A stretch of 64,000 bases of DNA from an uncultured delta proteobacterium. GTDB lineage: Bacteria > Desulfobacterota > Binatia > UBA9968. Where the stretch lies: NCBI GenBank assembly GCA_963840855.1, contig CAWJBB010000058.1, positions 32,001-96,000 of the forward strand. Reading direction: 5' to 3'. Shown in pieces: positions 12,257 to 40,452 of this stretch. The notes below the pieces were generated by a model, which had not been told where the DNA came from, made no database searches, and saw only the letters and a program-made list of their open reading frames with translations. Numbering within the stretch: the first letter of the stretch is position 1; the number at the start of each line of letters is the position of its first letter. A program made the position numbers and the translations under genes.

Positions 12257-13435
12257 CTATGAGGCTTTTTCAGCAGCCTGCGCCGCGAAGGAAAACGCGT
12301 CATAACCTTCGTGAATGAGACGAATGACTTCGTCTTTTTTCGGATCGCGGTTGACGCCCACCGGGTCTCTACCTTCTTGCACCGCAAGAATCTGCTCGCG
12401 CAGGAGTTTGCGGTACATGATGACACCGCGGTCCCCTTCACCCAGGTGTTCGTTGGCGCGGTCGGCTATGGGGCCCTGGGTCTCCCACGCCATGTGGTCC
12501 TGGCTGGCAAAGCTTTCCATATGGAACTCGCCGTCTTCGTTCTTGGTGCGGACATACTCGATCGGCGCGTCCTCGGGCTGCGCCACGACACTGCCATCCT
12601 TGCTCGGCGCGAAGCGGAACTGAATGACTTGCGTGTTTTGGTCATCGATGGGCGTGCGAAAATGCATGGCGTAACCCATGCGCACGGGAACGAAGAGAAG
12701 GTTGGGAAAAACCAACGGGTGCGGTGATTCCACCGGGCCATCTTCGCCCGCGAAGGTCCTTTGTTTTTGAATCCCCGCCCAGCTGGGATTGACCACCAGT
12801 TCAAAATCGATCTTGCTCAGCCGCTGATAATGAAAGGGTACGAAGTCTCTGGTCCCTTTGGTTTTTAGCGTGTGCGAGTGAAGATAATACGTATGCGTCG
12901 GATCGACGGAGTTCTCCATCGCCTGGAGCCAATTGCAGCCAAGCACCTCGCAAATGTCGATTTTCTTCAAGCCGTCCTCGCGCACGAGTAGATCCCACTT
13001 GGGTAAAGTCGGCTTTTTCTCCGGCGGTCCCATGTAGGCGAACAAAAGCCCCGCGAGTTTTACCACCGGGTAGGCTGGATGCTGAATTTTCTCCTTGAAA
13101 CCGGCCTCCGGACTCTCGAAGGGCTGGTCGATGCATTTGCCGCACGCGTCGTATTTCCAGCCATGATAGGCACAGCGGATGCCGTCTTCCTCGACGAATC
13201 CGTAATAGAGCGATACGCCGCGGTGCGAACACTTTTCGGCGACGAGACCGTAATTTCCTGTACGGTCTCGATAGAGGACCAGATTTTCGCCTAAAATTTT
13301 TACTTTCTTTTTTGGTTTTTCGTCGCTGAGCTCCGCGGCGGCCGCCACCACATGCCAATAACGCCTCAGCAGTTGTCCCGCGGGCGTCCCAGGACCTACG
13401 CGCGCAAGCAAATCGTTTTCTTCGTGACTGAGCAT
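12257..13435 (-). CDS. Rieske non-heme iron oxygenase alpha subunit (phthalate 4,5-dioxygenase/LigX-like)
   Basis: CSHRG...CAYHGWKY Rieske motif; ENSVDPTHTYYLH iron motif; start MLSHEEN follows AAGGAG. Confidence 0.92.
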   Translation of the reverse strand: MLSHEENDLLARVGPGTPAGQLLRRYWHVVAAAAELSDEKPKKKVKILGENLVLYRDRTGNYGLVAEKCSHRGVSLYYGFVEEDGIRCAYHGWKYDACGKCIDQPFESPEAGFKEKIQHPAYPVVKLAGLLFAYMGPPEKKPTLPKWDLLVREDGLKKIDICEVLGCNWLQAMENSVDPTHTYYLHSHTLKTKGTRDFVPFHYQRLSKIDFELVVNPSWAGIQKQRTFAGEDGPVESPHPLVFPNLLFVPVRMGYAMHFRTPIDDQNTQVIQFRFAPSKDGSVVAQPEDAPIEYVRTKNEDGEFHMESFASQDHMAWETQGPIADRANEHLGEGDRGVIMYRKLLREQILAVQEGRDPVGVNRDPKKDEVIRLIHEGYDAFSFAAQAAEKAS

Positions 13436-13519
13436 GGCATAAACTCCTTTATCGTACTCAACGCGGCTTTGATCCGATGCGACGATGCTATGCGATGGCT
13501 TCGTGGGTGTCAATGTAAA

Positions 13520-13616
13520 GGAGGCGAAGGTGTGGGCGGGTGATCCTCGCAAGGGAGAGCGATGTAGGCCCCCGTGCATGCCCGAATCCGGGCGACCACA
13601 GGGGGTCGCCCCTACA
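13520..13616. repeat. REP-like element gggcgaccacagggggtcgcccctaca
   Basis: GC palindrome in the intergenic region; explains the spurious N-terminal extension of the Rieske ORF. Confidence 0.55.
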
Positions 13617-13698
13617 AATATTCACGAACTAAACCACTACTCTAAAAAACACGACCGTACTCCTCGTATCTCACTCGCTCCGCTGCTACACTATTTAT

Positions 13699-14148
13699 GT
13701 GAACTGGCAAGAAAACCTGGTCGACGATTCAGATCAAATCGCCGCCTTGATCCGGCAGACCAAACGCATCGCCGTTCTCGGCATCAAGACCGAAGCGCAA
13801 GCCGACCAGCCTTCCGTTTACGTGCCGCTGTATATGCAACGGGCCGGATACGAGATCGTTCCGGTGCCAGTATATTACCCGGATGCGACTGAAATCTTGG
13901 GTGAAAAGGTCTATCGGCGACTCACCGACATCCCCGGCGATATAGACATGGTCGATGTCTTTCGCCGTCCCCATGACATCAACAGCCATATCGAAGATAT
14001 TCTCGCTAAGAAACCGCCTTTAGTTTGGTTTCAGAGCGGCATACGCAACGATGCCGCGGCGGAAATCTTCGCCAAGGCCGGGATAAAGGTGGTCCAAGAC
14101 CGCTGACTTATGGTCGACCACCGGCGGTTCGCCGGTGCAGTCCGCTGA
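13699..14148 (+). CDS. CoA-binding protein (YccU/COG1832-like), probable selenoprotein with in-frame TGA at 14104-14106
   Basis: IAVLG, GYEIVPVP, DMVDVFR, VWFQSGIRN; reading through gives VVQDR-U-LMVDHRRFAGAVR*, matching the family end DRCxxxEH. Confidence is for the family; the Sec call is about 0.65. Confidence 0.85.
14116..14142 (+). promoter_or_regulatory. Putative bacterial SECIS hairpin
   Basis: gac-caccggcg-gtt-cgccggtg-ca-gtc; the G-containing loop is about 20 nt after the TGA and there is no adjacent U-tract on either strand. Confidence 0.6.
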
Positions 14149-14174
14149 AAGGAAGTACTTTTTTCGGCACCCTG

Positions 14175-15299
14175 CTAGGTCAAAAGATGGCGCGTCAAGT
14201 CGAGATTGGCGGTGAATGCCTCCGGCCGCGGTAGTTTCACGGAAGAATTGTAGATGATGAGAGGAATGTTCGACTCATGGAGGGAGCCGTGTGAACGGTA
14301 ACCGCGTTCGAGCTTTTCCATCGGTCCGGTAAGTTCGCCAAAAACAGTCTGGGCATCGCCGAAAACTGCCAAATCACCTATCCGTTCGGCCATAAGATCG
14401 TACTTTTCCGCGGCTTCTCGACGCGGTAGGACGGCCTCCACGCCCGTGAGACTCTTGAGTGTCTGCGTCACTATTTGTTCGTCTTCCGGCGAGTTAAGCC
14501 AGACCCACGCGGCGCCACCGAACGTTCGGTGGTGCTTGACGTAACGGTCTTTTTCCGCCGACAGCGCAAAACGCACCTCGACGCCCAATTCGTGGCAAGC
14601 CTTGGCGAGGTCCCAACAGCGAGTTTTGTAGTTCATACCATGATCGGCCGTAAGCAAGAACGCGGCATCCGGCGCCGCTTCCAGCGCTTTGGCTAAGAGC
14701 CCATCTAGCCTTTCCAAGTGTTCTTTCGACTGCCGTTCTTCCGGAGCCCAAGTGTGCATTGGAAAGTCGGTGGTATGAACATACAGTAAGCCGATGTCCT
14801 TACGGTGTTTGAGCAGGTCGACGGCCACTTCCCACAGCCAGTAATTGATCTCGCAGCTGTAGATATTGGCCGGCTTGCCGTAGAGACCAACCCACTCAGC
14901 GGGCGGCGCTTCCGCGGCGATCGCGATTTCCGCGCCTTTGCCGAGCAGGTGAATGGTTTTGACTTTGGCGGTGAGCAGCGCCGATTTCACACCGCGGGCC
15001 GCGGCCCGCTGAATGATGGTCGGAACCCGAATGAACTCCGCGCTTTCCATATAATCGGCCACGCCGGTTTGTTCGTTGAAGTAGGAGTTGCCTGTAATGC
15101 CGTGATCCTTCGGCCATGCGCCGCAGCAAATGGATACGTTGTTGGCGTTGGTGACCGTCGGGAAAACCGCGTCAACCCGCTTAAAAAAGCCGCGCTGGCA
15201 CATGAAGCGAAACGTCGGTAGAGAGTTCGCTTCGAGATAGTCCATGCCCAGACCATCGTACATGCCGATAACGATTCTTTGTGCGCCGATCAGCGTCAT
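14175..15299 (-). CDS. Alkaline phosphatase superfamily, phosphonoacetate hydrolase (PhnA)-like
   Basis: DGLG, PTVTNANNVSI, HGITGN, TTDFPMH, TADHGM, RSHG...E. Confidence 0.8.
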   Translation of the reverse strand: MTLIGAQRIVIGMYDGLGMDYLEANSLPTFRFMCQRGFFKRVDAVFPTVTNANNVSICCGAWPKDHGITGNSYFNEQTGVADYMESAEFIRVPTIIQRAAARGVKSALLTAKVKTIHLLGKGAEIAIAAEAPPAEWVGLYGKPANIYSCEINYWLWEVAVDLLKHRKDIGLLYVHTTDFPMHTWAPEERQSKEHLERLDGLLAKALEAAPDAAFLLTADHGMNYKTRCWDLAKACHELGVEVRFALSAEKDRYVKHHRTFGGAAWVWLNSPEDEQIVTQTLKSLTGVEAVLPRREAAEKYDLMAERIGDLAVFGDAQTVFGELTGPMEKLERGYRSHGSLHESNIPLIIYNSSVKLPRPEAFTANLDLTRHLLT

Positions 15300-15380: not shown

Positions 15381-16235
<855 letters not shown>

Positions 16236-38934: not shown

Positions 38935-40452
38935 ATGGCCAAAGAAAGGACCAGCGTTCGTATGCGAGCTCAAATCAAAACCCTGTCCGAACAGGGGCAC
39001 TCCGTTCGCCGTATTGCCCGGATACTTCGGCTTTCGCGCAGGACGGTGCGGAAGTTTTTGGAGCCCACCGCAGAGCCGCCCAGTGAGAGCGGTGGTTGGG
39101 TTGAGACGGTTGACTGGGAGTATGTCCGCCAGGAAGTCTATGGCAAAGGGACCACGGTCAAGCAGATCCAGCGGGAGGTGGCCCCCGAGACAGGGTATGT
39201 AAAGTTTTGGCGTCAGTTTCGGGAAAAGGTTAGTGTGCAAGCCTCACCCGATCAAGTGACTATCCGGCTTCATCACAAGCCTGCGGAAAAAACCCAGATC
39301 GATTTTTCAGACGGTCTGTTTATCACCGAGCGAGGGACGGGAAACAAGACACTGACCCAGTTTTTCTTAGGGGTTCTGCCCTTCAGCTCGTATACCTTCG
39401 GGGAATTCGTTCTAGATCAGAAGCTTTCCACCTTCATCGGGGTCCAGCAGCGCATGTTCGCCTACTTTGGTGGGATAACCCCCTACGTAGTGGTGGACAA
39501 TCTCAAGAGCGGTGTCCACAAGGCCGATCTGTACGACCCCGATGTAAATCCCACCTACTGTGATTTTGCCAATCACATGGGCTTTGCGGTACTGCCGGCC
39601 AGACCCTACAAGGCCCGGGACAAGGGCTCTGGGGAATGCCACATCGGAGTGATCCAAAGAGGGTTTTTCCAGGAGGTCCGTAACCGGGTCTTCTATTCTC
39701 TCCAAGATCTCAATCAAACCCTCAGGGAATATCTTCATCGGTTGAACCGCGAGGTGATGAAAGACTACGGGGTGAGCCGCAACCAGCGCTTCGAGCAAGA
39801 GAAAAAGCAATTAAAGGCCCTGCCACCCTCTCCCTTCGAGTTAAGCGAGTGGCGCCAGGCTAAAGTCCATCCCGACTGCCATATCCAAGTGGAGAAAAAC
39901 TTCTACTCGGTCCCCTTTGTCTACGTCAGCCAAAGGGTCCGGGTCAGGCTCACCGAGAAAATTGTGGAAGTGTTTAGTGAGGACAGCCAGCCCCTTACCG
40001 CTCACACCAGACTGATGGGGATCGGACAGTTCTCCACCTATGATTTCCATTATCCCGAAGCCAAGCTGAGCGTGGCGCGCTTTGAAGTCCGTCACGCTCA
40101 AGAACAGGCCAAAAAGCTTGGCCCCCATGTCGAGAAGTTACTCGATGATCTGCTCTCAGGCCAACATCCCTTGCGCCATCTAAGACGGGTCCAAGGAATC
40201 TTGCGGCTTGCCAAACGCTATCCCATCACGGCTGAAGCTTTGGACCATGCATGCCAGCGGGCGATTGTCTTCAACAAGACATGGCTCGCCTACATCAAAG
40301 ACTGCGCCCTTTACTTTGTTAGCCACGGCCAAAGACCCACGCTTCTTCCCCCGCAGAGAAAGCTGGATACCGTGCATCTACACCAATACGCTGCCAACTC
40401 GGGCTCAGATTCTGAACTGTCGCTGCCGTCGGTGGAGGAGGAACTGCTATGA
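38935..40452 (+). CDS. istA: IS21 transposase
   Basis: HTH SVRRIARIL..SRRTVRK; QIDF, VVDNLKS, DKGSGE DDE; NFYSVP. Confidence 0.95.
   Translation: MAKERTSVRMRAQIKTLSEQGHSVRRIARILRLSRRTVRKFLEPTAEPPSESGGWVETVDWEYVRQEVYGKGTTVKQIQREVAPETGYVKFWRQFREKVSVQASPDQVTIRLHHKPAEKTQIDFSDGLFITERGTGNKTLTQFFLGVLPFSSYTFGEFVLDQKLSTFIGVQQRMFAYFGGITPYVVVDNLKSGVHKADLYDPDVNPTYCDFANHMGFAVLPARPYKARDKGSGECHIGVIQRGFFQEVRNRVFYSLQDLNQTLREYLHRLNREVMKDYGVSRNQRFEQEKKQLKALPPSPFELSEWRQAKVHPDCHIQVEKNFYSVPFVYVSQRVRVRLTEKIVEVFSEDSQPLTAHTRLMGIGQFSTYDFHYPEAKLSVARFEVRHAQEQAKKLGPHVEKLLDDLLSGQHPLRHLRRVQGILRLAKRYPITAEALDHACQRAIVFNKTWLAYIKDCALYFVSHGQRPTLLPPQRKLDTVHLHQYAANSGSDSELSLPSVEEELL

Follow-up and report, generated by a model that had tools for sequence, protein, structure and literature searches.

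A predicted selenocysteine form of a PF13380 (YccU-type) CoA-binding protein in uncultured Binatia

In an uncultured member of the Binatia, a small single-domain protein of the family PF13380 (CoA_binding_2) is encoded by a gene with an in-frame TGA, which very probably is a selenocysteine (Sec) codon that has taken the place of the family's conserved cysteine. The gene lies in the window, i.e. the whole stretch of 64,000 nucleotides of contig sequence that was analysed, and comparison with its relatives establishes the signature of a Sec codon accompanied by a selenocysteine insertion sequence (SECIS). The original prediction had read the TGA as Sec, and this reading is supported by alternation of TGA with Cys codons among relatives, by a conserved hairpin, by the presence of the TGA in independent assemblies, and by selA, selD and fdhA in the same genome, with gaps at tRNA-Sec and selB. 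The features of the locus are as follows.

12257-13579, minus strand: Rieske/LigXa-type oxygenase, the upstream neighbour
13699..14148, plus strand: the whole PF13380 gene, with a GTG start and 149 residues, predicted Sec at residue 136
14104..14106, plus strand: in-frame TGA read as putative Sec (U136), aligned with the conserved Cys of ..QDRC..
14116..14142, plus strand: SECIS-type hairpin, as judged from folding energy, frozen synonymous sites and published model constraints
14146..14148, plus strand: true stop TGA, 13 codons 3' of the Sec codon
14175-15299, minus strand: type I phosphodiesterase/nucleotide pyrophosphatase family protein, the convergent neighbour
15381-16235, minus strand: apparently an ABC ATPase, judging from its sequence

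The open reading frame 13699..14106 (plus strand, GTG start) terminates with ...AGIKVVQDR at the TGA 14104-14106, and beyond it the frame stays open, as LMVDHRRFAGAVR, until another TGA is reached at 14146-14148, so that the arrangement originally described is confirmed by the window letters. In relatives, the stop of the extended frame (TAA, TAG or TGA) lies 10-14 codons past the Sec codon, directly 3' of the hairpin. Residue 136 is the sole Cys/Sec of the window protein in its read-through translation. TGA terminates 14 of the 39 long frames of the window and hence acts there as an ordinary stop, which indicates a standard genetic code. Contigs assembled from the DNA runs of two other studies (X1, covering 13728-14154, and X2, covering 13721-14244) span the codon with no alternative letter listed at 14104-14106, one of the runs possibly being the window's own source sample; the TGA is no assembly slip. 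Contigs from RNA libraries (X15, X16) span 13710-13987 only, short of the TGA, and may reflect DNA carry-over. No clear Shine-Dalgarno sequence was found ahead of the GTG start at 13699, and an out-of-frame ATG-TGA pair at 13697-13702 overlaps the start codon.

The oxygenase upstream of the gene is the only neighbour shared with the locus of one congener, while the neighbours of other relatives differ (an amidohydrolase, a xanthine-dehydrogenase-type subunit, esterases, a hydantoinase and a solute-binding protein), and neighbourhood comparison across the loci yields no operon partner. The gap between the convergent genes measures 26 nt (14149-14174) and contains a run of T at 14160-14166; a pattern scan called no terminator in it on either strand.

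The read-through product matches PF13380 with an E-value of 1.2e-33 and a score of 116.5 bits (curated cut-off, 22.8 bits), from residue 22 to residue 141 and over profile positions 1-115 of 116, so that the match runs across the TGA at residue 136. A scan against NCBIfam returned no specific model and only three sub-threshold matches to ADP-forming ligases. PF13380, to which the YccU/COG1832 group belongs, is present in 384 of 401 sampled genomes of the phylum; of 14 control genomes, 11 have it, including E. coli. The product belongs with the YccU/TT1466 type of single-domain CoA-binding proteins, and from this family membership CoA binding may be expected of it.

The nearest solved structure is that of TT1466 (1IUK, E 1.1e-28), followed by 2DUW from Klebsiella and PH1109 (2D59), and all three carry Cys at the aligned position (DRCLMVEHKRL in TT1466, NRCMMREHERL in PH1109, DRCPAIE in 2DUW). 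The ending ..DRCxxxEH, which the original prediction gave as typical of the family, is seen in TT1466 and PH1109, while the Klebsiella protein is without the EH. A model obtained with AlphaFold from an alignment of 23 relatives (pLDDT 84, pTM 0.83) superposes on 1IUK with a Z-score of 22.5 and an rmsd of 1.4 Å over 136 residues (TM 0.83/0.91), and places residue 136 between the predicted last strand (130-132) and the predicted last helix (137-149). Family, fold and the C-terminal ..DRC-LMVEH.. are thus common to the window protein, TT1466 (1IUK/1IUL) and PH1109 (2D59/2D5A). TT1466 and PH1109 have Cys, whereas the window protein and 62 other loci have TGA followed by a SECIS-type hairpin, and the tail past the motif is a near-fixed RRFAG in the window-type Sec forms, unlike in TT1466 and PH1109. 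We know of no established biochemical role for TT1466 or PH1109 beyond CoA binding.

Relatives of the gene alternate between TGA and Cys codons with conserved coding downstream, at exactly the codon 14104-14106, which is the pattern that the original prediction had proposed to look for. Among 18 loci fetched from related genomes, 17 contain the motif (6 with TGA, 11 with TGC/TGT), and the contigs of species-representative genomes contributed 80 loci, 70 of them with the motif (6 TGA, 64 TGC/TGT) and the other 10 outside the motif pattern. The nearest 80 metagenome contig loci include 77 with the motif (45 TGA, 32 TGC/TGT) and three without it, and a sample of 301 genomes of the class added 21 further loci, all with the motif (6 TGA, 15 TGC/TGT); the apparent TGA of one genome of this sample (G074) is a Cys form's regular stop codon. 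TGA accordingly occupies the Sec codon in 63 fetched loci, some of which are one contig reached twice, and is present in 12 species-level genomes; 62 of the 63 yield 52 distinct 57-mers, the remaining locus being too near a contig end. All Cys forms examined have TGC or TGT, followed by the equivalent peptide (..VVQDRCLMV[ED]HR..). Of the best 120 database proteins, 89 stop precisely behind ..QDR and the other 31 proceed into C-LMV[ED]HR.., which means that gene callers systematically truncate the Sec forms. A phylum-wide PF13380 search gave none with an internal TGA among the 150 matches listed, there being 1568 further matches.

The hairpin downstream of the TGA has a core in which a 5' arm (14119-14126, caccggcg) and a 3' arm (14130-14137, cgccggtg) form a perfect 8-bp stem closed by the loop gtt (14127-14129), and it can be extended by three outer base pairs between gac (14116-14118) and gtc (14140-14142) across a 2-nt bulge; the stem, the loop and the gac/gtc extension are as first described. 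The 19-nt core alone folds with -13.7 kcal/mol (z = -4.57) and the 27-nt form with -15.5 kcal/mol, each being equalled by none of 200 shuffles. The hairpin starts 12 nt 3' of the UGA, and its GUU loop starts 20 nt after the UGA. The bSECIS model, as given in one figure legend of a recent review (PMC13188914, Fig. 2 legend), comprises a loop of 3-9 nt with a G among its first two nucleotides, an upper stem of 4-16 bp, a distance of 16-37 nt from the UGA to the loop and an MFE <= -7.5 kcal/mol. Within the terms of that legend, the window hairpin agrees with the model throughout (3-nt loop GUU, 8-bp stem, 20-nt spacing, -13.7 kcal/mol), and its interpretation as a bacterial SECIS, advanced in the original prediction, is borne out by this agreement and by its conservation. 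In part, the stem is a consequence of the codons for the peptide RRFAG. A pattern scan of both strands called no terminator at 14116-14142. In an intrinsic terminator a GC stem is directly followed by a U-run, which the window hairpin does not have; the nearest T-run (14160-14166) begins 22 nt past the stem, in keeping with the originally reported absence of an adjacent U-tract.

Selection on the hairpin as RNA, over and above the peptide, was assessed by comparing the entropy of Sec forms from the main clade (52 distinct 96-mers) with that of 113 distinct Cys forms. In the Sec forms, the third positions of the 20 codons preceding the UGA have an entropy of about 1.07 bit (mean of per-codon values), and those of the hairpin codons +5 to +9 (CAC CGG CGG TTC GCC) have 0.14, 0, 0, 0.14 and 0 bit, whereas the same positions have 0.99-1.92 bit in the 113 distinct Cys forms. 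At codon +10 of the Sec forms the entropy leaps to 1.87 bit, and beyond it the sequences have nothing in common. Codons +1 to +6 retain L-M-V-D/E-H-R in the 52 distinct Sec forms, and outside the stem they change synonymously (CTG/CTT/CTA/CTC at codon +1, GAC/GAT at codon +4), so that the stretch past the UGA is also coding. By this comparison of sequences, the hairpin is evidently under selection at the RNA level.

Across 49 sequences of the main clade, stem pairing is kept in 98.6% of cells, with four cells unpaired, and five one-sided changes are wobble-compatible (four sequences have G-U in place of G-C, and one has U-G in place of C-G). The loop occurs in the variants GTG and GTA and in a shifted form, ccggc-GGTCA-gccgg, and G is first or second in every loop of the Sec forms examined. 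No compensatory double changes were detected in the main-clade stem (49 sequences, no pair changed on both sides; shuffles give the same), hence the structural support comes from the frozen synonymous sites and from a second lineage. This lineage belongs to a genus of another family (g23), in which four genomes have TGA at the same codon, followed by LMV[ED]HRSPAAT... Their hairpin, ggtcgcc-GGC-ggcgacc, is located at the same place and differs in sequence from the main-clade stem; it has a 7-bp stem and the loop GGC, which starts 23 nt past the UGA, and folds with -11.6 kcal/mol. The Cys congeners within g23 have TGC/TGT and a tail ..HRSLA.., without such a stem.

A maximum-likelihood tree was computed, without the Sec/Cys column, from 12 Sec and 26 Cys rows that all derive from genomes (38 in total), leaving aside one locus in which the motif was not found (L029) as well as five matches of only 45-50% identity; among the Cys rows, G015 comes from an unpublished genome, and no result depends on it. 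Eight Sec rows form one clade made up of the genera g1 and g17 (support 99/92), and the other four form a second clade (89/84) nested in that of g23 (100/100), so that well-supported branches force at least two Sec/Cys changes. Judged by these sequence comparisons, the Sec lineages are two and independent.

As to the machinery for Sec insertion, the original prediction had suggested looking for selA, selB, selC and selD, and the outcome was divided: selA (616 bits) and selD are present in the genome to which the window belongs, while selB is found in two frames and selC, the gene for tRNA-Sec, was not found in the assembly. The selD gene itself has an in-frame TGA (..KAAG-U-AAKLGP), as does fdhA (..ENQARI-U-HSSSVPG), and these two have in common with the window gene a UGA at the place of an active-site Cys, a close hairpin and a loop beginning with G. 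The fdhA element has the same 12-nt spacer as the window gene, with a 6-bp GC stem and the loop GGUCU, and the selD element has a GUU loop like that of the window hairpin. What sets the window gene and its Sec-form relatives apart from such genes is that the Sec is just 10-14 codons from the stop, which comes directly after the hairpin.

The assembly is 94% complete and 8% contaminated, and consists of 93 contigs. For tRNA-Sec, the Rfam model gave a best score of 43 bits against a cut-off of 47 bits, ARAGORN reported none among 40 tRNAs, and blastn with the tRNA-Sec of a congener returned nothing; the flanks of the congener's gene have no syntenic match in the genome that would point to loss into an assembly gap. 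On contig C1, at about 39,975-39,995 (minus strand; L011:1480-1530), selB is divided into frames of 187 aa (N-terminal) and 475 aa (C-terminal), apparently where the frame shifts by one base within a GC-rich run. The fdhA gene (C40:300397-303685; L231/L230/L232) matches its family profile in three successive frames, which suggests further indels in the assembly. These split frames point either to assembly indel errors or to a Sec system that is decaying in the strain. In the relatives, selB is in one frame in all five genomes tested (G001, G002, G091, G170 and G038), and a tRNA with the anticodon TCA, scoring 73-76 bits on the tRNA-Sec model, occurs in G002 (same genus), G038 and G039, all of which bear the TGA. 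selA was found in 244 of the 301 class genomes, including all nine TGA-bearing ones of the sample, in a tally that includes the unpublished genomes G228 and G233. Since relatives with the same TGA have tRNA-Sec, selB in one frame and selA, the defects in selB, fdhA and tRNA-Sec of the window's own genome are probably due to assembly indels. The tRNA-Sec genes of G002, G038 and G039 (L039, L040 and L041, each at 1501-1591) are 91 nt long, and three positions differ between families.

If the TGA were a true stop, the product would have 135 residues and would be without Cys and without the last helix, and the hairpin would be a terminator or an mRNA-stability element. Gene callers annotate the gene in this manner, as the 89 of the best 120 database matches ending in ..QDR attest, the hairpin is situated at a gene end between convergent genes, and the genome's own assembly has no detected tRNA-Sec and a frameshifted selB. 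Against this stands the peptide downstream of the TGA, which is in frame, is identical to that of the Cys forms and varies synonymously at codons +1 and +4, as well as the stop of the extended frame, which always comes just past the hairpin. Moreover, the stem is without a U-tract and no terminator was called on either strand, the TGA falls on the conserved Cys of the family in two independent clades, and truncation would delete helix 137-149 from a fold that is conserved from Thermus to Pyrococcus, so that termination at 14104 is very improbable. A narrower version of this view, in which the nonsense mutation is private and the hairpin terminates the convergent gene, had been named at the outset as what would refute the Sec reading; recurrence in two clades, together with the lack of terminator features, excludes it. 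That the TGA stands for TGC/TGT through an error in sequencing or assembly, or through a mutation private to this strain, would accord with the apparent frameshifts in selB and fdhA of the same assembly, but the TGA recurs across many contigs and collections (63 loci) and in 12 species-level genomes, and the contigs of two other DNA runs agree at 14104-14106; recurrence refutes this explanation, and its probability is negligible.

The conservation of full-length coding is equally expected if the UGA is read through without selenium, be it by a near-cognate Trp or Cys tRNA or by a Cys-charged tRNA-Sec-like species, and the failure to find a canonical tRNA-Sec in the own assembly agrees with such decoding. 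Yet close relatives with the TGA have the TCA tRNA (73-76 bits), intact selB and selA, the hairpin fits the SelB-type SECIS model as summarised in the legend cited above and resembles the genome's own fdhA element, and no sign of another decoding route appeared in this analysis, which makes read-through of this kind even less probable than termination. Under the preferred reading of the TGA as a Sec codon, the GC-rich hairpin 12 nt past the UGA would recruit SelB-GTP-Sec-tRNA(Sec) to the ribosome, UGA 14104 would be recoded as Sec, and 13 further codons would be translated before termination at 14146; from the sequence evidence we infer that selenium is inserted at UGA 14104.

Sec nearly always stands in for a catalytic or redox-active Cys, hence its presence at the single conserved Cys provides a first functional handle on PF13380, and residue 136 would be the reactive centre. 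Because the window protein has no second Cys, an internal selenenyl-sulfide cannot form, and the partner of U136 must be an external thiol. The most likely partner would be the pantetheine thiol of bound CoA, with which U136 would form a mixed selenenyl-sulfide, and we give about an even chance to the proposal that U136 reacts with the CoA held by the same domain. A wider and more tentative proposal, which we consider possible but rather less likely to hold, is that PF13380/YccU proteins in general are single-Cys redox enzymes or sensors, whose C-terminal Cys or Sec joins the thiol of their bound CoA in a mixed (seleno)sulfide, and that this residue was twice upgraded to Sec in soil Binatia, creating an uncatalogued selenoprotein family. 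If the mixed-(seleno)sulfide reading is true, the proteins could handle CoA disulfides or persulfides, or put CoA on and off proteins. For a widespread and uncharacterised domain, the presence of Sec at the single conserved Cys predicts which residue to mutate and which chemistry to assay.

Other CoA-binding proteins offer a further point of comparison. In the model, the Rossmann-like CoA-binding fold appears to be common to the window protein and to the alpha subunit of succinyl-CoA synthetase (SCS) and ADP-forming acyl-CoA synthetases (1JKJ/2SCU, 4XYL; Z 11-13), and model residues 15-150 align with residues 1-146 of the E. coli SCS alpha chain (Z 11.3-11.9), as ranges in a structural alignment. 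The window protein consists of this domain by itself, and its neighbourhood contains no ligase partner. The CoA-binding domain of E. coli succinyl-CoA synthetase likewise has a cysteine, Cys123alpha, which was reportedly studied by mutation by Hidber et al. in 2007, and the PDB entries 2NU6-2NUA are said to be Cys123alpha mutants of this enzyme. When the family alignment was compared by profile with SucD from the same genome, no meaningful alignment resulted, and the ranges of the structural alignment did not yield a residue-by-residue equivalence of U136 and Cys123alpha.

The original prediction had also suspected that the family is new among selenoproteins, and as far as checked this holds. 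A review of 2026 compiles 119 prokaryotic selenoprotein families and subfamilies with domain identifiers in its Table 1 (PMC13188914), and this table contains no entry for PF13380 or a CoA-binding protein, its three 'CoA' strings belonging to other families; by the measure of that table, PF13380 therefore looks like an unlisted selenoprotein family. Neither deep-Sep (PMC12013277) nor BSepDB (PMC13326102) mentions 'CoA' in its main text, and the supplementary family lists of both could bear on novelty. Full-text literature searches brought up no paper on a Sec form of PF13380/YccU, nor on Binatia selenoproteins of such kind. Within the reach of these sources, the Sec form of PF13380 looks like a new protein family among the bacterial selenoproteins, a well-known class. 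The prokaryotic selenoproteome would thereby gain a family that is common in soil metagenomes (TGA in 45 of the 77 nearest motif-bearing metagenome loci). New selenoprotein families are still regularly reported, and the case of PF13380 offers in addition a lead to the mechanism of an orphan domain that is widespread.

The two Cys-to-Sec events, independent of one another and with differing hairpins that are each made from the codons of the C-terminus, also present a clean small case of the birth of a SECIS in a coding tail. One Cys form of about 80% identity (L052:3406-3450, with TGC) has the same six-pair stem, ccggcg/cgccgg, with the loop CTT rather than GTT. From its sequence this stem looks like a ready-made or a decayed SECIS, one base away from the element of the Sec forms.
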